Of a stretch of DNA of 55,518 nucleotides, positions 8,791-49,657 are shown one piece after another. The stretch spans positions 255,492 through 311,009 of the forward strand of contig OY969116.1 of the NCBI GenBank assembly GCA_963698075.1, read 5' to 3'. The position numbers were made by a program, and so were the translations under genes. This DNA is from an uncultured Candidatus Berkelbacteria bacterium (GTDB taxonomy: Bacteria > Patescibacteriota > UBA1384 > UBA12157 > JAENIV01). The notes beneath the pieces are model-generated. The model did not search any database and had not been told where the DNA came from. It saw only the letters and a list, made by a program, of their open reading frames with translations. Positions within the stretch are counted from its first letter, which is position 1, and each line of letters begins with the position of its first letter.

Positions 8791-9111
8791 CTACTCTCGG
8801 TGAGGGTAGGGAGTGATTCCCTGTCCCTTCGGGTAGAAGGTCTTCGTGCCATGGGCCCAACGGGCCTCGACGTCGAGCCCTTCCTCGTGAACAATGAGAC
8901 ACAGCGCGTGGACGTGCTCGTCCAGTGTACCGGTGCTCCCGCCGATCTCCATGTATGGCGCCTTGCGGCCTAGAAGATCGATAGACTCAGACTGGATTGG
9001 GACGATGACGATCTCATCTTTGACCGGCTCCGGAACATCGGAGTCGACAATCCTCCGCATCACCGATCTTACCTTGGAGTCATCCATCCCATAACACTTA
9101 ACTGTCGGCAT
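8791..9111 (-). CDS. hypothetical small protein, possibly tautomerase-fold (DUF1904-like)
   Basis: 106 aa starting MPTVKCYG, with SD gggag upstream. It has a beta-alpha-beta-like pattern repeated twice. The fold assignment is tentative. Confidence 0.55.
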   Translation of the reverse strand: MPTVKCYGMDDSKVRSVMRRIVDSDVPEPVKDEIVIVPIQSESIDLLGRKAPYMEIGGSTGTLDEHVHALCLIVHEEGLDVEARWAHGTKTFYPKGQGITPYPHRE

Positions 9112-10535: not shown

Positions 10536-11984
10536 ATGAACGAACGGCTGAATCTCACTCTACCCGGCAATCCCCGCTATCAACCCAAGAGTCTCCAAGA
10601 GTACTTCGGCTACGACAACCTCTACCGAGAACTCGCCAATGTCGAACTGACTACTCTCGCTGTCTTAAGTGAAATCGGCTTCTTTCCCAAAAGGGATTAT
10701 GACCTCCTGACCCCGGAAGTTCGGGAGGCGATTATGGCTATTCCCACCACTGGGATTGATCAAGTTGAGCGGGAAATCACCGGCCATGACGTTCGCGCCT
10801 GGATTCATCTTGCCAAAGGAAAACTACATCCTCGGTTAGCTCGATGGGTTCATGTTCCTCTGACCAGCTACGATCCCCTTGATACAGGCAGGATGATTCA
10901 ATTCGTTAAGGCCTATCAAGGGGTAGTCAAACCGCTCATCAGGGAAGCCGGTTTACTACTCGCTGATTTGGTCGAACGTTTTGCTGACCAGCTTCAGATC
11001 GGCCGAACTCATGGACAACACGCTTTGCCGATCACCGTTGGTTTCTGGATGGCCACTATCTTGAGCCGATATCTTTACAATTTCGAACAAATGGACATCC
11101 ACGCCGGAGGGCTGGTGGGAAAACTAAGCGGTGCTGTTGGCGCCTACAACGCCCAAGAAGGACTAAGAATCGAAGAACGTGTCAAGAAAATGACCATGGG
11201 CGATTGGACCTTTGAGAAGCTCGTACTTCGCAAGCTCGGACTGGAACCCGCAAGAATCAGCACCCAGATCTTGCCACCCGAACCCCTCGCCTATTTCCTA
11301 TTTTCTGCACTGATGCTTTCGGCGACAATTGCCCAGTTCGGCCGCGATGCCCGCCACTTGATGCGCTCCGAGATCGCCGAATTTGCCGAAGCTTTCGAGG
11401 AAACCCAAGATGGCTCTTCGACTATGGCCCACAAGCGCAACCCAATCACCTTTGAAAACCTCGAAGGCATGTTCTGGCGGACAAAAAACGAGTTCGGCAA
11501 GGTCTTAGACACCTTGATTTCCGAGCACCAGCGCGATTTGGTCGGCAGTTCGCCGGCCCGCGATTTTCCCATTATTATCATCAATCTCGTCCAACAACTA
11601 GGCACCCTGACAAGAAAAAAGAAGGACGTTCCGTTCCTCGCGCGGGTAACCATCAATCCTGAAGCCTGTCAGCGCAATTTCGAGATGTCCAAGCATCTGA
11701 TTCTTTCCGAACCGCTCTACATTGCGCTTCAAATGGCTGGCTACGAGGGCGATGCCCACAATTTCGTCAACCACGTCTTGACACCCAAAGCCCAGGCCAG
11801 CGGCAGGATGCTGGTAGAAATCCTCGAAGACTTCCCCGATGATGATCCGGCCAAGACGACCTACCTTCTGATCCCTGCCGAAATCCGCGAACTTCTCCAC
11901 CACCCCGAGCAATATACTGGTCGAGCCAAAGAAAAAGCCCTCGAGATCGCCGCTCTGGCGCGCGAGCAACTCGAGGCGTTCTAA
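10536..11984 (+). CDS. purB: adenylosuccinate lyase
   Basis: 482 aa with the fumarate-lyase signature GSSTMAHKRNP. SD aaggag is upstream. Confidence 0.9.
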   Translation: MNERLNLTLPGNPRYQPKSLQEYFGYDNLYRELANVELTTLAVLSEIGFFPKRDYDLLTPEVREAIMAIPTTGIDQVEREITGHDVRAWIHLAKGKLHPRLARWVHVPLTSYDPLDTGRMIQFVKAYQGVVKPLIREAGLLLADLVERFADQLQIGRTHGQHALPITVGFWMATILSRYLYNFEQMDIHAGGLVGKLSGAVGAYNAQEGLRIEERVKKMTMGDWTFEKLVLRKLGLEPARISTQILPPEPLAYFLFSALMLSATIAQFGRDARHLMRSEIAEFAEAFEETQDGSSTMAHKRNPITFENLEGMFWRTKNEFGKVLDTLISEHQRDLVGSSPARDFPIIIINLVQQLGTLTRKKKDVPFLARVTINPEACQRNFEMSKHLILSEPLYIALQMAGYEGDAHNFVNHVLTPKAQASGRMLVEILEDFPDDDPAKTTYLLIPAEIRELLHHPEQYTGRAKEKALEIAALAREQLEAF

Positions 11985-11985
11985 G

Positions 11986-12612
11986 ATGGATCCCCGAGTG
12001 CGAGCCCTTATCACCGGTTTTGAGAAATTCGGACCCTATCCCCTCAATCCCACCAGCGATCTCGCCCGCGAGTTCAAAGGAGTCGAGATCGGCAACGTCC
12101 AATTCTCGAGCCTCGTTTTACCAGCTACTTACTGCACTGCCGCTCGTGATTTGTTCGGCGCCATCGAGGAGCTTAAGCCGGCCATAGTAATCAGTTTCGG
12201 TCTGGCCTCGAGAATTCCTCGTCTCCGAATCGAGACCTATGGCCGCAACTGGATGGAAAGTAACTACGCCGATAATCGCGGCGTCCTCGCCACTGGCGAG
12301 ATAATCGACCCCGATGGCCCGAATTTCTGTCGAACCAACATTGATTCCATCGGTCTCGCTCATGCCCTTCATCAGGCGAGCGTGCCCGTAGATATCTCTG
12401 TCGATGCTGAAGCTTTCGTCTGCAACGCTTTGATCTATCAAATCATGCTGTGTCTCTGCCATTCGTCCCAGAAAGTGCTCTTCACCTACTTTCATACCCC
12501 GTGGCCAGATCGCTATCTCGACCGCATAACTCTTGAGCCAGGCAAGGTCACGATCCCTTGGGAGACGCTCGATAAGACCGTCAGGACCACCGCCCTCTAT
12601 CTGGCAGGATGA
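11986..12612 (+). CDS. pcp: pyroglutamyl peptidase I (peptidase C15) family protein
   Basis: LITGFEKFG..NPT N-terminus. Putative catalytic residues: Glu (RIETYGRN), Cys (AEAFVCNALIY) and His (YFHTPW). The start is 1 nt after the purB stop. Confidence 0.75.
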   Translation: MDPRVRALITGFEKFGPYPLNPTSDLAREFKGVEIGNVQFSSLVLPATYCTAARDLFGAIEELKPAIVISFGLASRIPRLRIETYGRNWMESNYADNRGVLATGEIIDPDGPNFCRTNIDSIGLAHALHQASVPVDISVDAEAFVCNALIYQIMLCLCHSSQKVLFTYFHTPWPDRYLDRITLEPGKVTIPWETLDKTVRTTALYLAG

Positions 12613-12627
12613 ACGATCCCATTACAA

Positions 12628-12660
12628 GGCGGGGCGCCTCATCGGCGCCCCGCCTTTCTC
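12628..12660 (+). terminator. rho-independent terminator
   Basis: ggcggggcgcc tcatc ggcgccccgcc followed by tttctcg. Confidence 0.8.
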
Positions 12661-12671
12661 GTATCTAATTA

Positions 12672-12700
12672 TTGACAAGAAGATTAACTTATCCTATACT
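12672..12700 (+). promoter_or_regulatory. sigma70-type promoter
   Basis: TTGACA (12672-12677), 17 nt, TATACT (12695-12700). It is followed by a ~115-nt GC-rich leader before the CDS at 12822. Confidence 0.6.
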
Positions 12701-12821
12701 TAACTCAACCCGAAACGGTACGCCGTGAGGGAATCCAACTGCGGAGGGTACGCCCGATGCGAACCGTATCAGATGTGCTGGTGCCTAAGCGCGAACCAAA
12801 AGATGATATAAAGGAGTAACT

Positions 12822-13760
12822 ATGGAGCCAAAGAAAATTGATCGTCCGAAAGAAAAAGAGTTAAATCTAACGGATTTTGCTGATTCGATTACTTTTTGGA
12901 GTCAATTTAAGAGAGATGATCAAAAAGGTATTAAAAATGCTGTTATTCAACAGATCAATAAGTTGATTAAAGATTCTGGAATAAATGAAAAATATAAAGT
13001 TATATTTTTAGTGCACGATGTCCTCGTACATGACGAAAAAAATTCTATAAATCGCTATGTTTTAGACCGAATTTACTCAACGTTGGTAAAAATCAAAAAA
13101 AGTGAAAGTATTCTTCTAATACTTAATAGTGGAGGAGGCGAAGTAGAGCCTGCTTATTTAATTTCTAAGTGTTGTAAACTTTATTCCCAGTTTCATGTGG
13201 CGGTTCCAAGAAAGGCGAAATCTGCTGCTACTTTGTTGTCTCTTGGAGCACACTCTATACATATGGGAGATATAAGCGAGTTGGGACCAATCGACCCACA
13301 GATTAAAGGACTTCCCGCATTAGCAATAGATGATGCTATTGAAGCAATAGCGAATATTGTAGAAAGTTATCCAAAATCTGCTGATTTATTCGCCCGCTAT
13401 TTAAGTTCCAATCTAGGTATTCAAGCCCTTGGCTATTATAAGCGTATTCCCGCCTCAGCTCTCGATTATGCCAGCAGGTTACTATCGGATAAAACATTTG
13501 AGAATACCTCGGCAGAAAATATTTCAAAGAAGCTAGTAAGGGGCTATAAAGATCATGGTTTTGTTATTGATAAGGACGAGGCAAAATCTATACTAGAAAA
13601 GATGGTGCAATACGATACTGAAGAATACAGACTTTCCGATAAAATTTACCGTTTGTTGGAAACATTTATAATTGTGTCATGGGCAGTTCATAAAAAAAGA
13701 TACTCGTTAGAATACCTAGGGGAAGTTGATGAAGGATTTTATCTTGGCGAAAAAGAATAA
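12822..13760 (+). CDS. SDH-family Clp-fold serine proteinase (ClpP/SppA-like)
   Basis: 312 aa, low GC. The block ILNSGGGEVEPAY...VAVPRKAKSAATLLSLGAHSIHMGDISELGPIDPQ matches the serine-dehydrogenase-proteinase/ClpP fold pattern. Confidence 0.7.
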   Translation: MEPKKIDRPKEKELNLTDFADSITFWSQFKRDDQKGIKNAVIQQINKLIKDSGINEKYKVIFLVHDVLVHDEKNSINRYVLDRIYSTLVKIKKSESILLILNSGGGEVEPAYLISKCCKLYSQFHVAVPRKAKSAATLLSLGAHSIHMGDISELGPIDPQIKGLPALAIDDAIEAIANIVESYPKSADLFARYLSSNLGIQALGYYKRIPASALDYASRLLSDKTFENTSAENISKKLVRGYKDHGFVIDKDEAKSILEKMVQYDTEEYRLSDKIYRLLETFIIVSWAVHKKRYSLEYLGEVDEGFYLGEKE

Positions 13761-13894
13761 ATCTATAACAATCACTTCTACTCTCCCCTTCCACTTCAAC
13801 GGCACGTTTCACAAACCGTCCCATTTTCCGGGCTGAATTGTTTAAAAACCTCTATATGCCACTTCTTAACTGAAAAGTATAGAAGTGATAAATC

Positions 13895-13916
13895 AAAGAG
13901 CTAAAGCTCTTTTTTG
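13895..13916 (+). terminator. terminator hairpin (also the left copy of a 19-nt direct repeat)
   Basis: aaagagc taa gctcttt followed by tttgg. Confidence 0.6.
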
Positions 13917-13920
13917 GTAA

Positions 13921-13955
13921 AAAAAATACCGGCAGACCAGATGGTCAACCGGCGG
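13921..13955 (-). terminator. terminator of 13984..14238 gene
   Basis: On the minus strand, ccggttgacc atct ggtctgccgg (imperfect) followed by tattttttt. Confidence 0.5.
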
Positions 13956-13983
13956 AATGGATGATGCGGTTGCGACAATAATA

Positions 13984-14238
13984 TTAAGACTTTCGTCTAA
14001 CCCTGAGTACAGCTTTCTCCGGCGAGAACTCAAGGATTTCCCACTGCTCGACACTCATACTGACTACTCTCTCGCCTTTCAGCATGAGTGTCCAAGCGAC
14101 AAACTCAGATAGAGGCATTGGGTCATTGGTATCAACGATTTCAGTGATTTCAGTGCCACCGGCTTCGACAATGACGGTAAGTCTACCTGTGACAAGTGTT
14201 CCCATCAGCGTAACACCCGGTGGATAGTTTGCTGTCAT
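13984..14238 (-). CDS. hypothetical small protein
   Basis: 84 aa, high GC. SD gaggtg lies 5 nt upstream of the ATG. Confidence 0.55.
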   Translation of the reverse strand: MTANYPPGVTLMGTLVTGRLTVIVEAGGTEITEIVDTNDPMPLSEFVAWTLMLKGERVVSMSVEQWEILEFSPEKAVLRVRRKS

Positions 14239-14435
14239 TTGTCACCTCGTCTCTTCGAGTTTGAGATAACAATAGCAAAAAGTATTATATTAGTCAATCC
14301 GATTTAGAGCGAAAGGTATTTTTTAATTTACGGGTACAAGATAATTAAATAATCCCCAAAATGTGCTGGAGCATAAATTAGGGATTAATCACAAATATGC
14401 TGGAAGTGTATATAGAGACGAAAATTCTTTTTTGA

Positions 14436-14464
14436 TTGACTTTTTTAAAAAATTATGCTATATT
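14436..14464 (+). promoter_or_regulatory. sigma70-type promoter
   Basis: TTGACT (14436-14441), 17 nt, TATATT (14459-14464). Confidence 0.6.
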
Positions 14465-14505
14465 GCTTTTAGTTGTTCAAGAGAAAGTTCCAAGGAGAAC
14501 GGCCG

Positions 14506-15027
14506 ATGCCCGCGGAAGTTCGTTCGGTCTGGTTGCATTGCTGGGTACCATTTGTCCAGACTGCTCTCTCTGAAGTTCTGGAACACATTGAGGCTGACGG
14601 AGCCCATCGGGGCGGTTTTTTCTGCAGCGTTGACACCGCTTTGACTTTGAATGTCCCGACTCTCGTCATCAGGGTCGGCAACTTTCCACGAGATCGCGCT
14701 GAACGGCGGTTTCGACTATCCATCGAAAAGCCAACGCGACTGCTCGCTAATCCGACTCATATCAGCAGTGAACAATCTAGATGTGATGAGAAGGAACAAT
14801 TCGGAGGCGCAATCCGAACGAGTGCGGGGATGGCTTTCTCTTTCTCCGGGCTTCCGCGTGGTATCGACGACGAGGCGGTCTGCCTCCTTACTGCCGAGCG
14901 GACTGGCCAGATCTTGCCGGAGCTGATCGAGAGAATCGTCGCCATTAGCAACAACGATGTCTACCGGCGCATTCGGGCCTTCCACCCTCTGAGTCCAGTG
15001 GGGCACCGCAGGCAAATACCGACATGA
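14506..15027 (+). CDS. hypothetical protein
   Basis: Start moved to the ATG at 14506, preceded by SD aaggag. 173 aa. No family recognised. Confidence 0.55.
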   Translation: MPAEVRSVWLHCWVPFVQTALSEVLEHIEADGAHRGGFFCSVDTALTLNVPTLVIRVGNFPRDRAERRFRLSIEKPTRLLANPTHISSEQSRCDEKEQFGGAIRTSAGMAFSFSGLPRGIDDEAVCLLTAERTGQILPELIERIVAISNNDVYRRIRAFHPLSPVGHRRQIPT

Positions 15028-15037
15028 GGAGGTAGCA

Positions 15038-15136
15038 ATGAGCCAGCTTCAGATTAACCCAACCTACAAGTGGTTGGCACTGGGCTGTTTCGTGGTTATC
15101 GTGCTCGTTGTCGCCCTCGTCCGGGGCTGGATCTGA
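15038..15136 (+). CDS. 32-aa single-pass membrane peptide (not in ORF track)
   Basis: SD gaggagg, then ATG at 15038. Product MSQLQINPTYKWLALGCFVVIVLVVALVRGWI. It begins 8 nt after the stop of the preceding CDS and is followed by a terminator. Confidence 0.4.
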   Translation: MSQLQINPTYKWLALGCFVVIVLVVALVRGWI

Positions 15137-15168
15137 TCTAGAACGGCGCGGTGACAACGCCATCTGTG

Positions 15169-15200
15169 GTGGGCGGGATTCTATCCCGCCCACTCTTAGT
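15169..15200 (+). terminator. rho-independent terminator
   Basis: gtgggcgggat tct atcccgcccac followed by tcttagttt. Confidence 0.7.
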
Positions 15201-15306
15201 TTAAACACTAATCACCAGTCGCTAGTTACTGGCTTCTGGCGACTATCTTGGGAGCGAAAGCTCTTTTTTGTTTTCTGAAAAAGTTTTGCTATGATAAAAA
15301 CGAATT

Positions 15307-15930
15307 ATGACGAAAGTTCAACTTTTTAAAAAGTTTTACAATTTAAATAAATCGCTTTACCAAAAAGCGAAAAATCCGCTCAAATGCCACGGTCCAGATC
15401 ACCATTGGCGGACTTTCAAAAACGCCGAATACATTATCGGCAAACTCAAAATCAAGCCCGATTATGAAGTTTTGATTCCGGCGATATTTTTGCATGATAT
15501 TACCGCCTTTGAGCCTGACGCCCATGATCCATGGAATCATCAGGAAGATTTAAATGAAGCCAAAAGAGAACTTAAAAAATTAAAATATTCTCCGGAAAAA
15601 TCAGAACAAATATTAAGACTAATTGCCGTCCACGGCTCGGATCCCCAAAAAATCAAAAAAAACGAACCGATTGAGGCGACATTACTTCGCGACGCCGACA
15701 AGATGGATGTGATGGGCCCGATTGGCATTGGCCGAATTTTTATGGCCCTTACCAAAAGTTGCGGCTATGATCTTAAAGATTTTGCCCAAAAATATCACCG
15801 CGAAGCCACAATCCGCCAAAAATATCAAGCCATCAAAACAAAGTTCGCCCGCGATTTAGTTCGTAAAGATTATGAATACTCGCTCAAATTTTTTAAAGAA
15901 TTAGATGAGAAATTAAAAGAAAGTAGGTGA
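15307..15930 (+). CDS. HD-domain phosphohydrolase
   Basis: HGPDHHWRTF ... IFLHDITAFE ... LRDADKMDVMG (the H..HD..D pattern). Confidence 0.8.
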   Translation: MTKVQLFKKFYNLNKSLYQKAKNPLKCHGPDHHWRTFKNAEYIIGKLKIKPDYEVLIPAIFLHDITAFEPDAHDPWNHQEDLNEAKRELKKLKYSPEKSEQILRLIAVHGSDPQKIKKNEPIEATLLRDADKMDVMGPIGIGRIFMALTKSCGYDLKDFAQKYHREATIRQKYQAIKTKFARDLVRKDYEYSLKFFKELDEKLKESR

Positions 15931-41942: not shown

Positions 41943-43436
41943 ATGCTCAAACAGTATCAATCAAAACGAAAATTCGCCCAAACGCCAGAACCCCGCGGCG
42001 CCGCCCCAGAGGGGGCTCTGCCCCGGCGGGGTAAAATATTGAAATCCGTTACTAAGCATGCTAAGGCTGTTTTTGTCGTCCAAAAACATCAGGCGCGCAA
42101 TTTACATTACGATCTTCGTCTCGAAATGGATGGTGTCTTAAAATCTTGGGCGGTACCCAAAGGCCCAAGTATGAATCCGGCTGACAAACGTTTAGCGATG
42201 ATGGTCGAAGATCATCCGCTTGAGTATAAAGATTTCGAAGGCATGATCCCCGAAGGCCAGTACGGCGCGGGGAAAGTGGAAATTTGGGATAAAGGCACAG
42301 TTGAATTTATCAATCGTGATCTTTCGCATGCTATTTCCGGCGGGCATCTCACTTTTGTTTTAAATGGCAAAAAATTAAATGGCGAATTTGCCTTGGTCAA
42401 AATTAAAAGGCCTCGGACCAAAGGCGGCGAACCCTGGCTTTTAATTAAAGCCCACAATAAATCACCTAACAACCCAAAGACCACCTACGCGGTGGTCTCT
42501 AACAGGTTAAAAATACCACATCACATCAAACCGATGCTCGCCACTTTGGTCGACGAACCGTTTGATAAAAAAGACTGGATTTTTGAAATCAAATGGGATG
42601 GCTATCGGGCAATTGCTGAGATCGATAAAGAAATTAAACTCTACTCGCGCTATGGCAATCTTTTTAACGACAAATATCCGGCAATTGTTGAGGGTTTAAA
42701 AAAGGTGGGTCATCGGGCGGTTCTGGATGGGGAGATCGTGGCCTTAGATACTGAGGGACGTTCGCAGTTCCAACTATTACAAGACTATCAAAAAAGTCAT
42801 CACGGAAATCTCATCTATTACGTATTTGATATTCTGTGGCTTGACGGCAAGGATTTAAGAAAACTGCCGCTCATTGAACGCAAAAAGATCTTAAAAGATT
42901 CTCTACCGGAAATTGCCAATATTAAATACAGCGACCACGTCGAAGAAAACGGCAAAGAGTTTTTTGAGGCCGCGACTAAAAAAGGGCTGGAAGGTATCAT
43001 CGCCAAAGATGGTACGAGTCTGTATGTCGAAAGTCGCGCCAAAGCTTGGCAAAAAATTAAAAACATCAATGAGCAGGAAGTGGTCATTGCCGGCTTTACC
43101 GAGCCGCGCGAATCCCGAAAATATTTCGGAGCTTTGGTTTTGGGTGTTTATGAACGCGGGAAGTTAATTTATGTCGGCCATTCCGGCAGCGGTTTTAATG
43201 AAGCGTCTTTAAAAGAAATCTATGGCAAAATGAAACCGCTTATTATCGAAAAAAGTCCATTCGATATTGAGCCGAAAACTAACGAGCCGGCAACATGGAT
43301 TAAGCCAAAACTTGTCGGCCAAGTTAAATTCGCCGGATGGACCCGCGACGGCCTCATGCGCCAACCGATATTTTTGGGCCTACGCGATGATAAAGAGGCG
43401 AAGGAAGTTAAAAGAGAAGGATATCATGACCGATAA
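41943..43436 (+). CDS. ligD: ATP-dependent DNA ligase LigD, phosphoesterase + ligase domains
   Basis: PE domain FVVQKHQARNLHYDLRLE..SWAVPKGPS. Ligase domain KPMLATL and FEIKWDGYR (KxDG adenylation). Confidence 0.9.
   Translation: MLKQYQSKRKFAQTPEPRGAAPEGALPRRGKILKSVTKHAKAVFVVQKHQARNLHYDLRLEMDGVLKSWAVPKGPSMNPADKRLAMMVEDHPLEYKDFEGMIPEGQYGAGKVEIWDKGTVEFINRDLSHAISGGHLTFVLNGKKLNGEFALVKIKRPRTKGGEPWLLIKAHNKSPNNPKTTYAVVSNRLKIPHHIKPMLATLVDEPFDKKDWIFEIKWDGYRAIAEIDKEIKLYSRYGNLFNDKYPAIVEGLKKVGHRAVLDGEIVALDTEGRSQFQLLQDYQKSHHGNLIYYVFDILWLDGKDLRKLPLIERKKILKDSLPEIANIKYSDHVEENGKEFFEAATKKGLEGIIAKDGTSLYVESRAKAWQKIKNINEQEVVIAGFTEPRESRKYFGALVLGVYERGKLIYVGHSGSGFNEASLKEIYGKMKPLIIEKSPFDIEPKTNEPATWIKPKLVGQVKFAGWTRDGLMRQPIFLGLRDDKEAKEVKREGYHDR
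41991..42031 (+). repeat. GC-rich palindromic in-frame element (copy 1)
   Basis: ccccgcggcgccgccccagagggggctctgccccggcgggg, encoding PRGAAPEGALPRRG. Its reverse complement aligns with 43958..43992. Confidence 0.7.
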
Positions 43437-44352
43437 AATTGTCATCATTGACGGGAAAAAATTGAAGCTGACGAATTTAGAGAAAGGATTATTTCCCAAT
43501 ATTACTAAACTTGATTTGATTAATTATTTCGATGAAATGGCCGAATATATTTTGCCGTATTTAAAAGATCGGGCACTTTCAATGCACCGGTTTCCTGATG
43601 GAATTAGTGGCGAGGGATTTTTCCAAAAAAATGTCGAGGATTTGGCGCCTGACTGGGCGACAACAAAAAAGATCAAGGATGAGGAAGGTAAAACCATCGA
43701 ATATTTAGTTTGCAACGATAAAGCCACGCTAATCTATCTTGCCAATCTTGCCTGCATCGAACTCCATCCCTGGCTTTCAAAAATTGAGGATTTAAAACAT
43801 CCGGATTTTTTGGTTTTGGATTTGGATCCCGAGGATGTACCCTTTTCGAAAGTTGTTGAGGTCGCCCTGGCCGCCAAGAAGGTTTTGGATAAACTTGATA
43901 TTACGGCTTATATCAAAACCTCCGGCGCCCGCGGCCTGCATATTTTTATCAATGTCGGAGCCCGCCGGGCAGAGCCCTCTGGGGCGGAGCCCAAATACAC
44001 CTACGATCAAGTCAAAGATTTTGCGGAAATTTTAGCCCGTTTAATCAACAAAGAAATCCCCGAAATCACCTCGCTCGAACGTCTGCCCGAAAAACGAAAA
44101 CACAAAGTTTATATTGACTGGCTCCAAAACGCCGAAGCGCAGACTGTCGTTGCCCCTTACTCCCCCCGCCCCACCAAAGAAGCGTCGGTTTCCGCACCCC
44201 TGGGGTGGGATGAGATAGGTTCAAAAATTAAACCTTCAGATTTTACTATCCATAATATCCAAACCCGCCTCAAATCCAAAGGCGATATTTTCAAAAAACT
44301 CCTCGACGAAAAAGCAATTGACATTAAAAAAATAGTCGAGAGAGTTAAATGA
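43426..44352 (+). CDS. LigD polymerase/primase domain protein (separate ORF)
   Basis: Start at the ATG at 43426, overlapping the ligase stop by 11 nt. HPWLS, LVLDLDP, IKTSGARGLHIF. Confidence 0.88.
   Translation: MTDKIVIIDGKKLKLTNLEKGLFPNITKLDLINYFDEMAEYILPYLKDRALSMHRFPDGISGEGFFQKNVEDLAPDWATTKKIKDEEGKTIEYLVCNDKATLIYLANLACIELHPWLSKIEDLKHPDFLVLDLDPEDVPFSKVVEVALAAKKVLDKLDITAYIKTSGARGLHIFINVGARRAEPSGAEPKYTYDQVKDFAEILARLINKEIPEITSLERLPEKRKHKVYIDWLQNAEAQTVVAPYSPRPTKEASVSAPLGWDEIGSKIKPSDFTIHNIQTRLKSKGDIFKKLLDEKAIDIKKIVERVK
43958..43992 (+). repeat. GC-rich palindromic in-frame element (copy 2)
   Basis: gagcccgccgggcagagccctctggggcggagccc, encoding ARRAEPSGAEP inside the polymerase domain. Confidence 0.7.
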
Positions 44353-44990
44353 AAAAAATTATTTTTACTATTATAGTTCTTTTCGCCATCGGCTTAGTTG
44401 CCTACTATTTTTTTTATTTTAGAAATAAACAATCATCAACAATAACATCAGCAACTTCGCCATCCCTCACAACTTCATCCAGCCCGACTATCTCGCTTCA
44501 ATCTCAACTGGCCGAGCCGGTCAAAGATTTTAAAGCGCGAGTGACCAAAAAACCGTTTGGAATTTATGTGACGCCGCAGGATTCGCCAATCCAGCCGGAA
44601 AGGTTCACCGGTTATCACACCGGCGCTGACGCCGAGTACGGCGATGTTACGGCTGATGTTCCAATTTTCGCGGTTGCTGATGGTACAATCACCCACTCTC
44701 AATGGACCTCCGGCTACGGCGGCTGTTTTATCTTAAAAGTGGAAATTAATGGCTCACCCCATTCGTCTCTCTACGGCCACATTCGACCTTCAACCCTACC
44801 GAGTCTCGGCCAACAATTTAAAAAAGGCGACCAAATCGCTGTTTTGGGCACGGCTTATTCAACCGAAACCGATGGCGAACGCCGCCATTTACATTTAGGA
44901 ATTTTATCTGATGATAGAATCGATGTTAAAGGATATGTGAGTTCTCAATCCCAACTTTCCGGCTGGCTTGATCCGTTGAGTTTTTATTAA
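44349..44990 (+). CDS. M23 family peptidase (LytM-like), membrane anchored
   Basis: N-terminal TM segment. HTGADAEYG, YGHIRPS, RRHLHLGI. Confidence 0.85.
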   Translation: MKKIIFTIIVLFAIGLVAYYFFYFRNKQSSTITSATSPSLTTSSSPTISLQSQLAEPVKDFKARVTKKPFGIYVTPQDSPIQPERFTGYHTGADAEYGDVTADVPIFAVADGTITHSQWTSGYGGCFILKVEINGSPHSSLYGHIRPSTLPSLGQQFKKGDQIAVLGTAYSTETDGERRHLHLGILSDDRIDVKGYVSSQSQLSGWLDPLSFY

Positions 44991-45087
44991 TTTGATAATT
45001 TTATTTGAACTCTGTCAAAGAATTTGCTATTATTTATAGTCGCAACCGAGTTGCTCGCGACAATACCCCGGACAAGGAGCAAGGGCC

Positions 45088-45486
45088 TTGAAAACCTATC
45101 GCTTTTCCGGCCGAATCGCTGTCATCGGCTACGGCGCCGAAACACCCATTGGGACGCTTGGCCCAGGAGACGAAAGCTTCTGGAAGGCTCTACTTGCTTG
45201 CCAGACGGCAATCAAGCCCCTTTCCTTCAAACCAGCCGACTACGGGATTGAAGCTAAGGTTGCCTCAGAACACACTGATTTCGATTTCGGACCTTATGCC
45301 AAACAGATTACAGCCCTCACTGGACAAGCCATTACCGGCCCTATCCCAGCCTCCATTGATAAAGCCATCCAACTCGGCCTTGCTTCAACTCTCCTAGCTT
45401 GTCAAATGGCCGAAATTGACCTAACCCAACCTAACAGAATGATCGGCGTCAAGGGTGGTACTGGTCTCGGTGCGGGCGCGGAGTAG
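45088..45486 (+). pseudogene. N-terminal fragment (~130 aa) of beta-ketoacyl-ACP synthase (FabF/FabB-like)
   Basis: TTG start after SD aaggag. RIAVIGYGAETPIG, FWKALLACQTAIKPL, IGVKGGTGLG. It stops before the catalytic Cys region; full-length enzymes are ~410 aa. Confidence 0.7.
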
Positions 45487-45824
45487 AGGACGTTGCCACT
45501 CTTGTCCAGGATGAGCAGGTCCTCGTAGCCGAGCCTGTTCTTGCCGTCGGTGGCGAAGACGTAGTCGGCCTGGTCCCTCGCGGCGTATCTTGCGCCGTGG
45601 GCGATGAAGACCTCGGCCGCCGCGGTGGCGAGCCGATTGCTCGAGGCCAGATAGACCGTCTTGTCCGAGGCGAACCGGTCCATCTGTTTCATCAGGACCA
45701 CCAGCTCCGCGTCGGCCTTCTTGGAGGCCTCCTTGTTGTAGTTGCCGATCGCGATGCCGATCATCAGTCCGACCACCAAACCAACAACACACCCCAACGC
45801 TACCAGCGACACTGCTTTCCTCAT
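45402..45824 (-). CDS. hypothetical membrane-anchored protein (3' end runs antisense into the ketosynthase fragment)
   Basis: SD aaggag and TM anchor AVSLVALGCVVGLVVGLMIGIAIG. Very GC-rich. The last ~27 codons are antisense to the KAS fragment. Confidence 0.5.
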   Translation of the reverse strand: MRKAVSLVALGCVVGLVVGLMIGIAIGNYNKEASKKADAELVVLMKQMDRFASDKTVYLASSNRLATAAAEVFIAHGARYAARDQADYVFATDGKNRLGYEDLLILDKSGNVLYSAPAPRPVPPLTPIILLGWVRSISAI

Positions 45825-45941
45825 CGTCCGCTCCTTGTCGCGTTCTCCTCGCTTGAGGGAATCCTAGCTACCAATCTGTGATTGCCAACCAGGTTTCCAC
45901 CAAGGAAATCCTATCTCTACTATAAGGTTTAAAACTTTATT

Positions 45942-45970
45942 AGTATACCATAAAATATACCTGATGTCAA
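45942..45970 (-). promoter_or_regulatory. sigma70-type promoter with extended -10
   Basis: Minus strand reads TTGACA, 17 nt, TATACT, preceded by TGG. Confidence 0.55.
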
Positions 45971-46002
45971 GGGGAGGCAAAAGAGGAGTTCTTCGGCGCT
46001 TT

Positions 46003-46049
46003 CTTTTTTGATATGAAAATGCGCCAGCCGGGGAAACCCAGCTGGCGCA
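46003..46049 (-). terminator. rho-independent terminator of 46076 gene
   Basis: tgcgccagc / gctggcgca 9-bp stem. ttttcatatcaaaaaag follows on the minus strand. Confidence 0.7.
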
Positions 46050-46075
46050 CTCGTTCGCCGCGACTGCGGCTGTTG

Positions 46076-46474
46076 TCAATCAAGCGCTGTCCTCTCGAAT
46101 ACGTCTTCCTCTCCAGGACCCTTCAGATACATGGTCAACTCACCAGGTTCCATGGTGTAGGCGACGGATGCCTCAACCGACCTGCACTCGCTCAGCCATT
46201 GGTTGGCGAATGCAATCAGCACCGCGCAGATCGTCTCGCGGAGCTTGGCGAAGATCTCTGGCGTCCGCTCTGGGCGTCGGAAGATGCCGCGCACCTCCGC
46301 GACGAGAGCACCTCCTACCTTGCCCTGATCGCCGGGGACAAACACCAGCACCTCATCAGCTTCGATGATCAGCTCCTCCACCCTGGCCACGGCTTGTCGG
46401 AGACCAAGTTTGAGATCCTCGATCGGTTCATCTCCAACGTCTCTGGGAACTCCCGACACATTCAGTATCGGCAC
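46076..46474 (-). CDS. hypothetical protein, possibly tandem tautomerase-fold
   Basis: Preferred start is the GTG at 46474 after aaagga, giving MPILNVSGVP...; the track start is 46489. A beta-alpha-beta pattern occurs twice. The assignment is tentative. Confidence 0.5.
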   Translation of the reverse strand: MPILNVSGVPRDVGDEPIEDLKLGLRQAVARVEELIIEADEVLVFVPGDQGKVGGALVAEVRGIFRRPERTPEIFAKLRETICAVLIAFANQWLSECRSVEASVAYTMEPGELTMYLKGPGEEDVFERTALD

Positions 46475-46508
46475 GGCAGTCCTTTCCACATCAGAATAAC
46501 GGCCTTAA

Positions 46509-46537
46509 ATAATATCACAAAAACAAGCCCTCGTCAA
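46509..46537 (-). promoter_or_regulatory. sigma70-type promoter
   Basis: Minus strand reads TTGACG, 17 nt, TATTAT. Confidence 0.5.
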
Positions 46538-46641
46538 AGAATGTATCTGATGAGCACCGACACCTTGGAAGTGTAAGAGGGGAATATTTATCCACTTTCG
46601 TATTGACGCCCCACCCCTGGTGCGTTTGGAGAAATAAATCC

Positions 46642-46699
46642 CCACCACCGAACTTATACGATTTTTTATTAGTACTTTTTGTATTCTTTGGCGCTTTCT
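46642..46699 (+). repeat. direct repeat copy 1 (58 nt)
   Basis: ccaccaccgaacttatacgatttttta...attctttggcgctttct. The first 27 and last 17 nt are identical to the copy at 46778..46833. Confidence 0.85.
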
Positions 46700-46777
46700 T
46701 TGATATTACATCTAAATAATCCTCCAATATTCTGCAGAATGTCGGAGTGTTTTTCTAGAACATTTTACTATCGTGCT

Positions 46778-46833
46778 CCACCACCGAACTTATACGATTT
46801 TTTAGGTATATTTTAAATTCTTTGGCGCTTTCT
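46778..46833 (+). repeat. direct repeat copy 2 (56 nt)
   Basis: See copy 1. The period is 136 nt. Confidence 0.85.
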
Positions 46834-46861
46834 CAAGGGTTTCATTAAACTCTCCTATTAT

Positions 46862-47776
46862 CTAATTTTTGTTCATCTTTTTTCCCGGGATTTCTGACAT
46901 AATTGATTGCATTGTGATAGAAAAGGTCGCTTTTGCCTGCTCGAGCGTTAATTCTGTTGGCTTACTGTTTTTTTGGATTTCGTAAGGCGTTATCTTATCG
47001 GTTTTTAGGTTCCCATATGCTTGAAAAGAGCCACTATTTGCGTCGAAAAGACCATTGGCTTCAATGATTTTAACTTTTGAAAGATGATTGCGCATTGCTA
47101 CCTCATAAAATATTTTTACATTGTCTACAACAATCGGTTTTTTCTCATCCTTTGCAAATACAAACACATCACTGGTAATTCTAGTAGGATGATATATGTA
47201 TCTTCCAGGTTTTTTAATAAGATCATTGCTATCATTCCAAATATTGCGCACTACTGCATAACCTGACAAAGAAAAATTTGGAGGGCCATCAAAATAAATT
47301 TGAGTAGGCGGAATTTGGGTAAGTTTGTATGCTTCGGGATCAGAACTTTGAAATAAAAAAGAAAAAGACTTCAGATAAGTATCTTGAAGAAAAACAGAAG
47401 CATATATCCGCGGAAGAATATTTGTATCCTTTGTGTCTATTAAATTATACAAGGATATTCCTAGTTCTTTTGCAGTTCTCATGGCGCCACTTGTGTATCG
47501 TGAGTTAGAAACAACAGCACCCCTTTTTGCACCGACGTTCATGAGTTTTCCGTATAATTCTTCAATTTTAGGCGTGTCTAAAAGTCTTTTTAAGTCTTTA
47601 CATTCGTAAATTAAAAAGTCATTAGGAAGGTGTCTGTTAATTGAGACATCAATTTGTCTGGGGGTTTCTGATAGTTTTCCTTTTATTTTTATGTTGTGTT
47701 CCACATTTTCTTTGGGATGTAGCAATCTAACTGTTTCATACACCTTCGTTTCATAATTTTTCCATTTTTTAGCCAT
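46862..47776 (-). CDS. Mrr-like PD-(D/E)xK restriction endonuclease domain protein with unknown C-terminal domain
   Basis: 304 aa. The N-terminal ~115 aa read QIDVS...LIYECKD...GAKRGAVVSNSRYTSGA (the D...E-x-K pattern of Mrr_cat). The remaining ~180 aa match nothing I recognise. Confidence 0.65.
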   Translation of the reverse strand: MAKKWKNYETKVYETVRLLHPKENVEHNIKIKGKLSETPRQIDVSINRHLPNDFLIYECKDLKRLLDTPKIEELYGKLMNVGAKRGAVVSNSRYTSGAMRTAKELGISLYNLIDTKDTNILPRIYASVFLQDTYLKSFSFLFQSSDPEAYKLTQIPPTQIYFDGPPNFSLSGYAVVRNIWNDSNDLIKKPGRYIYHPTRITSDVFVFAKDEKKPIVVDNVKIFYEVAMRNHLSKVKIIEANGLFDANSGSFQAYGNLKTDKITPYEIQKNSKPTELTLEQAKATFSITMQSIMSEIPGKKMNKN

Positions 47777-47787
47777 CCGTCTCCTAA

Positions 47788-48642
47788 CTATTTCTTAGGT
47801 GGCCAATAAACCCCAAGAACTACAAAGGCGTTATAAGGAAAGATTGTGCCTACGATAAGATAAGAATCTCTTGTGTCTGCCCACATAACTTTTAAAAACT
47901 TTTCTTTGATTTTCGATAATATTACGTCGATAGAATATTCATAATTATTTTTTAATGAACGATATAGCTCATAGATTTCCCAATCGATTATTCGAAGTGC
48001 ATGCGTCTTCTTACATTTTGGGTCATCACAACTAAATTTGTAACTAAATTCGTATGGACAAGTTTCGAGTTCTTTAGTTTGTTTTGTAAAGCCGAGCGTA
48101 AGCTGATTTTTGATAGCCTTTTTCCTTGGGTTCAAATCAGATTTAGCCGGTTTAATCAGAAGATCATGCATTATCGAGGGCTTAAATATGCCTAATGATT
48201 TTTTACTGGTGCCGTAATCCTCAGTTATTTTTTCTAAACTTTTAGAAATCGTCGGTAAAACAACCTTATTTCTTTCGTCCCAGCCATTCTTGCCACTTGT
48301 GGATAGTAAATTAAGCAGCTTAATGGAATCTTCTTTTGGCCTAAAGCTGTCCACTCTCTTATCCCGTTTGGGATCGTGCTTCTTTACTTCGATTTCGATC
48401 CACTGATACTTCTTATACAATTTATCGCGATCGAGATAACGGTAAGAAATGGGGTACAGCCTAATCCATTCGCCTTTATCGGTTATCCCTGCAGTACAAA
48501 CAGTCTCTCGGTATTTTTTCGAGAGATTGGGGATTGTCTTTGCCACAATGAGGATTTTTTTTATTTGGTAATCTAAATCGGCGCCACCATCAGGCTTTTC
48601 TGATTCTGCTGTAATTCGCTTGCTATTATCGAACGATGACAT
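47788..48642 (-). CDS. hypothetical protein with Cys/His cluster (CPYEFSYKFSCDDPKCKKTH)
   Basis: 284 aa, long clean ORF lying 11 nt upstream of the nuclease gene. No family recognised. The conserved-looking N-terminus is ETVCTAGITDKGEWIRLYPISYRYL. Confidence 0.6.
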   Translation of the reverse strand: MSSFDNSKRITAESEKPDGGADLDYQIKKILIVAKTIPNLSKKYRETVCTAGITDKGEWIRLYPISYRYLDRDKLYKKYQWIEIEVKKHDPKRDKRVDSFRPKEDSIKLLNLLSTSGKNGWDERNKVVLPTISKSLEKITEDYGTSKKSLGIFKPSIMHDLLIKPAKSDLNPRKKAIKNQLTLGFTKQTKELETCPYEFSYKFSCDDPKCKKTHALRIIDWEIYELYRSLKNNYEYSIDVILSKIKEKFLKVMWADTRDSYLIVGTIFPYNAFVVLGVYWPPKK

Positions 48643-49007
48643 AGATCACTTTCTTTTTCGTAGCACATTAACAAAGTAACATTGCCATTCAATAATCCAA
48701 TAAGTGTTTTCATGTCTTCTACCTGGCCTCTTATATATTTACGATACTCTCTAAAAAATCTCGGGTAGTCGCTTGTGGCTTTAAGTTGATTTCTAATCTC
48801 CGTAGGGCTACCTAAGCGGCCAAGGTGATAGTATACTATTCCTTTTTTTGTTAGCGCCTCGGACAGTGCGGTTTTAGAAAATCCTTTTTTCCTACTCAGC
48901 GGAATTTCTCTGACATCAATCAGAATCTGAACATTATTCGTCTTAACCTTGACCAGAAACTCGTCCAGTGTTTCACCCTCATAACCAGCGAGATAAACTT
49001 TTGTTAT
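48573..49007 (-). CDS. DUF488 family protein lacking a canonical start codon (ATA at the expected position)
   Basis: Absent from the ORF track. 144 codons: ITKVYLAGYEGETLDEFLVKVKTNNVQILIDVREIPLSRKKGFSK..LGSP..LLMCYEKESDLCHRSIIA. SD ggagg lies 5 nt before the ATA, and an in-frame TAG sits 4 codons upstream. Confidence 0.7.
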   Translation of the reverse strand: MTKVYLAGYEGETLDEFLVKVKTNNVQILIDVREIPLSRKKGFSKTALSEALTKKGIVYYHLGRLGSPTEIRNQLKATSDYPRFFREYRKYIRGQVEDMKTLIGLLNGNVTLLMCYEKESDLCHRSIIASELQQNQKSLMVAPI

Positions 49008-49024
49008 ATTCCCCTCCTATATAA

Positions 49025-49053
49025 ATAATACAACCATAACCAAATATCTTCAA
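49025..49053 (-). promoter_or_regulatory. sigma70-type promoter of the DUF488 cassette
   Basis: Minus strand reads TTGAAG, 17 nt, TATTAT, ending ~17 nt before the ATA codon. Confidence 0.5.
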
Positions 49054-49069
49054 GATTTGGCATAATTTT

Positions 49070-49657
49070 TTATTTTTCCACTTTAAAAATCTTCCCATGC
49101 CCCGGGATAATGTAGTCGGCATGTTCTAAAATATTTTCCCGAGATTTTTTAAGCTCTTCTGTATTCTTCGCATATTCATCAGATTTATTCATTAAACTTT
49201 CGCGATCGGTTTTTTGTTCTTCCTCATCCCACCACCAAAACACATCTTCGGCGACAACGATGGTCCCATTATCGGTTTTTACCACGACCGAGCAATGAAA
49301 CGGATCGTGACCGGGTGTTTTAATAACTTTTATATCGTCGCTCGGGAAGGGCTTGTCAGCGACATAATCCTCGTAACCACCTTCGAAAGTATAAATTGCC
49401 CCATCATCCACTAATTTGGCTTTTTCAAAAATGCCAGCCAAACCGCAATGGTCGAGATGCGTGTGCGAAATCACGACATAATTAATATCGCGAGGCATTA
49501 GATTCTCTTTGGCCAAACCATCAAGCAGTTTTGTCCGATCCATCCCCGGGTCAACGATGATTTTCGTATCCTTATCAATAATTAACACGCAGCTTGAGGT
49601 CGCTTTGCCAGATTTTTTGATTGCGTAACCTTCGACTAAAATTTTTACTTCAGCCAT
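49070..49657 (-). CDS. MBL-fold metallo-hydrolase
   Basis: VISHTHLDHCG (HxHxDH) and later His/Asp ligands (TPGHDPFH, IPGHG). Confidence 0.88.
   Translation of the reverse strand: MAEVKILVEGYAIKKSGKATSSCVLIIDKDTKIIVDPGMDRTKLLDGLAKENLMPRDINYVVISHTHLDHCGLAGIFEKAKLVDDGAIYTFEGGYEDYVADKPFPSDDIKVIKTPGHDPFHCSVVVKTDNGTIVVAEDVFWWWDEEEQKTDRESLMNKSDEYAKNTEELKKSRENILEHADYIIPGHGKIFKVEK

Follow-up and report, generated by a model that had tools for sequence, protein, structure and literature searches.

Three consecutive genes on the minus strand between positions 46862 and 49053 of a 55,518-nucleotide (nt) stretch of DNA from an uncultured Candidatus Berkelbacteria bacterium (contig OY969116.1; the whole stretch is called the window below) are probably, though by no means certainly, two independent units lying side by side. 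One is a minimal mobile cassette of the PDC-M19 type, formed by gene A (48573–49007, a DUF488 protein of 144 aa) and gene B (47788–48642, 284 aa), which may act on replicating DNA as a SocAB-like toxin–antitoxin or defence system; the other is a solitary Mrr-type nuclease, gene C (46862–47776, 304 aa). A preliminary description of this DNA had placed all three in one uncharacterised module made of a DUF488 protein, a middle protein of no recognisable family and an Mrr-like nuclease as effector. The genes are present as it described them, and the peptides that it quoted, with ETVCTAGITDKGEWIRLYPISYRYL and CPYEFSYKFSCDDPKCKKTH in gene B, are found in their translations; the grouping did not hold up. 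Genes A and B are an obligate pair, and the three genes are not a conserved triad.

The distinction comes from the company that these genes keep elsewhere. When 185,579 species genomes were scanned, relatives of gene B turned up in 338, and 80 loci (numbered with the prefix L) were fetched for neighbourhood counts. A DUF488 gene lies directly upstream of gene B, on the same strand, in 74 of the 80; most of the other six are at or near a contig edge, with a convergent downstream DUF488 gene in L075 and none shown in L074. The reverse also holds, as all three close homologues of gene A that were sampled are followed directly by a homologue of gene B (E 1e-46 to 1e-77). Homologues of gene C, by contrast, occur in none of the 80 loci, and the four that were found at all never adjoin DUF488 or gene B, so the triad does not recur in these loci. 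The closest relative, L081, whose gene B is 87% identical, keeps the genes for an NHL protein, a metallo-beta-lactamase (MBL)-fold protein, A and B, followed by M23, LigD and Ku, in the same order, with the MBL-A-B block syntenic at 83% identity, and has no gene C. In L081 the 76 nt directly 3' of gene B (8819–8894) correspond to window positions 46680–46606 at 84% identity; the segment 47780–46702, which holds gene C and one copy of a direct repeat, is therefore an insertion. Gene C is a rare and independent nuclease that hops between islands, inserted beside the pair only in this lineage.

A single three-gene system, in which gene B would sense or modify and the nuclease would be the effector, could draw on the shared strand, on the gap of 11 nt between genes B and C (which was confirmed), on the Shine-Dalgarno sequence that precedes gene C and on the lack of a convincing terminator between the two genes; gene C is probably read from the same transcript as gene B. 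One other M19 locus, L047, also has an Mrr_cat–NACHT protein 2.7 kb downstream of the pair (11496–15755; 1420 aa, a STAND NTPase, a further neighbour of defence type but unrelated to gene C). Against the count of none in 80 loci, the intact MBL-A-B block of L081, the unrelated settings of the gene C homologues and the insertion-like features of gene C itself, we regard such a system as very improbable.

These features concern composition and repeats. The lowest-GC 1-kb bin of the window is, as had been noted, 47001–48000 (GC 0.338), and gene C has the lowest value of the three genes (0.344, with 0.370 for gene B, 0.396 for gene A and a window mean of 0.467). Direct repeats of about 60 nt (families D1–D3) had been thought to flank the three genes; both copies (46642–46701 and 46778–46835) in fact lie 3' of gene C, and no copy lies 5' of gene A. 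They contain an exact 27-mer, CCACCACCGAACTTATACGATTTTTTA, which occurs twice where no occurrence is expected, and a partial third copy is found at 45989–46006. Since the counterpart of copy 1 in L081 comes immediately after gene B, the repeats would mark the distal edge of the gene C insertion, and they look like a duplicated flank. The repeat motif was found in none of 88 fetched loci, Tandem Repeats Finder returned nothing around the repeats, and an Rfam scan of 44–51 kb gave no match. What remains of the proposed mobile defence island is a small island of defence type whose composition is distinct from its surroundings, but which does not amount to one three-gene system. As a separate observation, the GC content of 1-kb bins across the whole window spans 0.34–0.58, an unusual degree of patchiness for a contig whose reported length is 929 kb.

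The nuclease assignment of gene C was borne out. Residues 41–110, the only part of the protein that matches any Pfam model, match Mrr_cat above its cut-off (1.2e-7; 32.3 bits, cut-off 21 bits) with the motif QIDVS..YECKD, and the catalytic residues D43, E58 and K60 of the PD-(D/E)xK site (D43...E58-C-K60, 47597–47650, minus strand) are invariant in all five members of the family. The C-terminal domain of about 180 residues was correctly described as unknown and has no known relatives: its 179 aa match nothing in Pfam or the PDB, and PDB searches with the gene C sequence and with the family profile gave nothing meaningful. Gene C resembles Mrr and other type IV enzymes in its intact D...ExK site and in its surroundings, where Pfam scans of the principal open reading frames (ORFs) from 43.2 to 52.9 kb found no methylase domain, so that gene C is probably a methyltransferase-less (type IV-like), possibly modification-dependent restriction enzyme and a unit of its own. 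It differs from them in that its catalytic domain is N-terminal, with no Mrr_N or N-terminal winged helix as in E. coli Mrr recognised by Pfam, in its C-terminal domain and in the tiny size of its family. The neighbours of its four homologues (54–60% identity) include HEPN_AbiV with a LexA–methylase fusion, DUF3800 with an unknown 345-aa protein, and an AlwI-type restriction-modification (RM) system.

The pair, for its part, is a catalogued candidate and not an undescribed combination. Gene A is a DUF488 protein, as had been proposed (Pfam PF04343, 5.5e-28; 98.5 bits, gathering cut-off 22.2 bits), and matches the PADLOC model PDC-M19A (PDLC04505; 2.3e-38, 130 bits) over profile positions 150–286 of 294 only. 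Gene B has no match in Pfam or NCBIfam; it does belong to recognised families, with strong matches to PDC-M19B (PDLC04508; 1.5e-67, residues 27–283 on profile positions 3–262 of 269) and to PHROG 25907 (9e-56), and PHROGs contains a family for gene A as well. In all, 437 homologues of gene B were collected, and its family comprises 2960 clusters at 50% identity (E ≤ 1e-3). Sequence and profile searches of the PDB with either protein gave nothing meaningful. PADLOC, which had been named as a check of the locus, thus recognises genes A and B through its PDC-M19 candidate models; in the window the two are adjacent on one strand and either overlap by 70 nt or abut. PDC-M19 is one of 145 'phage defence candidates', which their authors call untested, and the set was chosen by 'guilt-by-embedding', from homologues found inside BREX, DISARM and type I RM loci (Payne et al., bioRxiv 10.1101/2024.01.29.577857).

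Gene B is spread patchily over many phyla. Twenty-four plasmids carry the pair, 11 conjugative ones among them; their hosts include Rhizobium and Streptomyces, and on Sulfolobus pSOG2 the pair lies beside an integrase gene. Seven temperate phages of Gordonia have the pair as well, within the immunity region. In one of these, Nymphadora (L087, 4048–6295), gp43 is a PDC-M19B homologue with the tail QISLF that follows the immunity repressor gp44, and gp42, annotated as a 'HipA toxin', is a DUF488 protein (Pfam 1.2e-29) convergent on gp43; both genes lie between cro and integrase, in the lysogeny and immunity region. The idea that gp44 might be a split-off Panacea-like domain was rejected (hhalign probability 0.1). 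Among the genes up to two positions away from 37 chromosomal pairs, 134 distinct Pfam families are represented, ordinary metabolic genes included; Phage_integrase is found at six of these loci, PLDc_2 at four, N6_N4_Mtase and TIR_2 at three each, and N6_Mtase, ResIII and Uma2 at two each. Given this patchy, mobile distribution and the variable neighbours, genes A and B look like an accessory cassette rather than a housekeeping operon.

The same distribution makes an accessory role in DNA repair or replication less likely for the pair, one in which gene B would be a clamp-tethered binder of single-stranded DNA (ssDNA) and DUF488 a DNA- or nucleotide-processing enzyme. Several observations would suit such a role: terminal QL(S/D)LF-type motifs, which many relatives of gene B carry, are typical of repair proteins (PMC9690074); gene B has a predicted RPA-like fold; the pair lies 3–6 kb from genes for Ku, LigD ligase and LigD primase-polymerase both in the window and in L081; and in L092 it stands beside rpsF-ssb-rpsR-dnaB. 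A repair factor sits poorly, however, with presence in only 338 of the species genomes, with conjugative plasmids and a phage immunity region as carriers, with changing neighbourhoods rich in integrases, RM genes, TIR and PLD, and with the embedding in RM and BREX loci from which the PADLOC model was derived, and we consider it rather improbable.

What the pair might do instead can be approached through the two proteins and their relatives. Gene A contains no canonical start: its frame has no ATG, GTG or TTG 3' of an in-frame TAG (49019–49017), which is why the ORF listing gives only an internal ORF of 46 aa. The sole start in register is an ATA (49007–49005), 5 nt past an AGGAGG (49018–49013) and followed by T-K-V-Y. 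L081 has a TTG at the position of the ATA, and the gene called there is 144 aa long. From the sequence, gene A either uses a rare non-canonical ATA start or is a poorly translated or recently weakened gene. A promoter had been placed upstream of it. Hexamers that would fit (TTGAAG-17-TATTAT, 49025–49053, minus strand) do exist 5' of gene A, match the consensus at 9 of 12 positions and are both roughly preserved in L081; such sites are, however, no more frequent in the region than expected by chance (14, compared with 10.9 ± 3.5 in shuffles). The reported overlap of 70 nt between genes A and B holds if gene B starts at the ATG at 48642. In favour of this long start, 66 of the 70 nt are identical to L081 (83% identity across the whole block), and relatives of the type found in the candidate phyla radiation (CPR) keep it, with a distance of -63 or -66 from the end of gene A to the start of gene B; against it, residues 1–20 are disordered in the structural model and homologues outside the CPR begin near residue 25.

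The AlphaFold2 (AF2) model of gene A is of high confidence (pLDDT 91.3). In an alignment of 32 DUF488 sequences the invariant positions are G-Y-E, D-V-R, S-x-K-x-G-F-S, Y-x-H, R and C-x-E-x5-C-H-R, the last of which includes C116, E118, C124, H125 and R126 (48633–48665, minus strand), is a candidate active site and sits where strand 4 ends and the next helix begins. The invariant set has the appearance of an enzyme pocket with many phosphate-binding residues, on an alpha/beta fold. The best fold matches were the N-terminal half of tetrapyrrole methylases and the Cys phosphatases of the protein tyrosine phosphatase (PTP) fold (TM-score about 0.45–0.5), and none in the PDB reached 1e-3 (E ≥ 0.019); identity with a PTP-type phosphatase was rejected, as the fold matches are weak and there is no C-X5-R P-loop signature. 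In the literature, ParB-CTPase-DUF488 fusions bind CTP, other mentions of DUF488 being incidental, and the fusion partners of DUF488 in the clade of gene A are HTH_59 and MazE/AbrB-type domains.

Gene B is predicted to be a DNA-binding protein with tandem barrels similar to the oligonucleotide/oligosaccharide-binding (OB) fold and a Cys3-His metal site. Its AF2 model (pLDDT 86.6, pTM 0.84) has as best Foldseek matches in the PDB the proteins RPA, Teb1 and HIN-200 (E 1.8e-4 to 5.5e-4, probability 0.9–0.99), with archaeal RPA filaments at 1.8e-4 and HIN-200 domains at a probability of 0.97–0.99; the telomere end-binding protein and RecO are further matches, and the best viral match is to the ssDNA-binding LEF-3 proteins of baculoviruses (1.6e-5). 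Because the TM-scores are low (0.2–0.34), the OB assignment indicates the fold class only. Pfam DuOB ('dual OB') was matched at 2e-3, below threshold, in two distant members of the family and, among 31 closer members, in one at 0.07; nothing relevant on DuOB was found in the literature. The multi-OB binders (RPA, Teb1, telomere end-binding protein, the HIN-200 proteins AIM2 and IFI16, LEF-3 and DuOB) would share with gene B the predicted tandem beta-barrels and, for archaeal and eukaryotic RPA, a zinc site as well; they differ in having no sequence similarity to it. Invariant residues in a 31-sequence alignment are C49, R61-L-Y-P64, R68, W81, D94, R96, C205, C210, H214 and W221-E222. The C-X9-C-X4-C-X3-H cluster given in the preliminary description therefore needs a different first member: C205, C210 and H214 (C205-x4-C210-x3-H214, 48001–48030, minus strand) are invariant, but C195 is not conserved, and C49 (48496–48498) is the likely fourth ligand of a CCCH zinc site.

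Further indications come from the forms that the pair takes among relatives. In the 73 loci where both genes are called and co-directional, gene A is long in 62 (about 290 aa, with an N-terminal domain of about 150 aa) and consists of DUF488 alone in 11, from CPR bacteria, some Firmicutes and Omnitrophota; the window copy, which has no N-terminal domain of the kind seen in the reference M19A, is of the short type. The long gene A of L012 covers the PDC-M19A profile end to end (positions 1–292 of 294). SocA_Panacea is the sole recurrent Pfam match of the long N-terminal domain (7 of 17 sequences, best 1.2e-4), and PDB sequence and profile searches with this domain gave nothing meaningful; Panacea (PF13274) was not matched in gene A of the window in the Pfam scan. 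The same domain of L012 (7108–7977) has a further match at the very C-terminal end of a PADLOC model for type I RM specificity subunits (PDLC03184, positions 431–553 of 554, 2e-11), a sequence match suggesting that some HsdS proteins carry the Panacea-like domain of long-form M19A.

The presence of this domain is tied to the end of gene B. When paired with a long gene A, gene B has a C-terminal tail in 61 of 62 loci, which ends in LF in 54 and in QxxLF in 41 (for example QGTLF, QQSLF and QLSLF), whereas 10 of the 11 gene B proteins paired with a short co-directional gene A have no tail and end in FWPPK; Fisher's test gives p = 2e-10 for the association, with loci counted regardless of shared ancestry. 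In its last 16 residues gene B has QxxLF in 41 of the 73 loci with both genes called and in 45 of all 80. When every ORF of 150 aa or more in these loci is counted (1099), 47 have the motif in this position, and only about 2 of roughly 1020 ORFs other than gene B are among them. The window protein ends in ...WPPKK and has no such tail. The C-termini of two archaeal proteins are different: the gene B homologues of Sulfolobus pSOG2 (L088, 4995–5861) and Methanothermococcus (L090, 4516–5286) end in ...SSGIDKWLQ and ...CNSLHDYFK, tails of the form [IL]xx[WY][LF] that, in these two cases, we take to resemble the motif of PCNA-interacting proteins (PIP).

In bacteria, a C-terminal QL(S/D)LF is a binding motif for the beta sliding clamp, and SocB of Caulobacter arrests replication through that site (PMC9690074). 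Its partner SocA is a Panacea-domain antitoxin, and systems of this class typically have the antitoxin gene first (PMC8832971). The wider PDC-M19 family would be similar to SocAB and PanAT in having a first gene with a SocA/Panacea-like domain and a second gene with a terminal clamp motif; it differs in the invariant DUF488 enzyme domain, which is absent from SocA, and both the Panacea domain and the motif are missing from the window copy. No DUF488 entry appears in the text part of the PanAT supplement. By this analogy, gene B would engage DNA at forks or in single-stranded form, with the clamp tethering it to the replisome in most lineages, and could arrest replication if uncontrolled, while gene A, encoded first and translationally coupled, would restrain or reverse it. 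Were this control to fail, whether through infection or because the element is lost, the replication of invader and host would be blocked, with abortive defence or addiction (post-segregational killing) as the outcome. Since the window copy has no clamp tail and no Panacea-like domain, it would have to act through the core relationship between DUF488 and gene B, with control exerted either by direct interaction of the two or by DUF488 chemistry alone; the substrate that the DUF488 domain modifies might be gene B, DNA or a nucleotide, or the domain might be the effector itself. It is in this sense that binding to DNA and to the clamp, toxicity, a role in defence and the direction in which control runs are inferred for the pair. 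A mobile module aimed at the sliding clamp would have a precedent in the Rosmer toxin RipA of Streptococcus pneumoniae, which acts on DnaN (PMC12795458); its protein family is unrelated to PDC-M19.

Several points weigh against this explanation. The analogy with SocAB leans on relatives, because the window copy, by loss or from the outset, is without the clamp tail and without the Panacea-like domain; the clamp-motif, Panacea-like and dual-OB features are leads that come mainly from those relatives and not from the window locus. Even there, all the Panacea matches fall below the Pfam cut-off, and the co-variation of tail and N-terminal domain is not universal, since convergent pairs (in Gordonia phages, on a Massilia plasmid and in L075) have a tailed gene B (QISLF, QPSLF) despite a short DUF488. 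Tails of this kind are also typical of ordinary repair proteins. The Foldseek TM-scores of gene B are low, and gene A has fold matches at E > 1e-3 only and no phosphatase signature. The invariant part of gene A is DUF488, not Panacea, and a simple binding antitoxin leaves it unexplained; an ATA start would yield little gene A protein, which would be awkward for an antitoxin. No paper naming PDC-M19 was found, and later validation studies covered other candidates of the set.

Some of these points would be better accommodated if the roles were reversed, with gene B detecting foreign replication intermediates, mostly at the clamp, and activating a toxic DUF488 effector. Gene A matches Pfam DUF488-N3a, the 'Active DUF488-N3 subclade' (5.8e-7; score 30.3, cut-off 27), a model presumably built on domains that serve as effectors in NTPase conflict systems; DUF488, with its conserved and catalytic-looking pocket, is the invariant part of the protein, and a weak ATA start is more tolerable for a toxin than for an antitoxin. 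The order with gene A first, and the N-terminal fusions to Panacea-like, HTH_59 or MazE/AbrB domains, are nevertheless typical of antitoxins, and DUF488 has no known substrate or toxicity, so that we judge an effector role unlikely. A SocAB-like cassette in which gene A controls gene B, next to an unconnected nuclease, is the explanation that we prefer.

A broader idea, which we put forward tentatively as possible rather than probable, is that PDC-M19 represents a new class of replisome-directed conflict systems, in which a dual-OB zinc protein rides the clamp (beta in bacteria, PCNA in archaea) and controls, or is controlled by, a DUF488 enzyme, the CPR form in the window being stripped down and untethered from the clamp. 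DUF488 would then, if this is true, have a first biochemical role, and immune or addiction modules would be seen to target the clamp in both prokaryotic domains. The pair is of value in itself, as DUF488 is a large family without known activity and PDC-M19B has no Pfam family. The predicted tandem OB fold, the putative Cys3-His site, the tail that tracks a Panacea-like partner domain and the PIP-like tails of two archaeal copies turn PDC-M19 into a set of concrete hypotheses, for which the window copy offers a natural minimal form to be compared with the long one.

The surroundings of the pair include a few further features. Directly upstream of it lies the gene of the MBL-fold hydrolase (49070–49657, minus strand, 195 aa), whose L081 copy has Anti-Pycsar_Apyc1 (PF23023) in its Pfam list. 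This gene was rejected as a fourth component, as no homologue was found in the 80 gene B loci and it is kept only in the closest relative, L081. On the other side, 45088–46600 is a rearranged hotspot in which a beta-ketoacyl synthase (442 aa in L081) is reduced to its first 87 or so residues, and two minus-strand ORFs of no family (45402–45824 and 46076–46489) have a GC content of 0.59–0.60; its counterpart in L081 holds small ORFs, an ABC transporter and a DsbA-like gene. Beyond the hotspot, the non-homologous end joining cluster, with genes for Ku, LigD ligase, LigD primase-polymerase and an M23 peptidase, occupies 42066–45139 in the window and 13613–16756 in L081.

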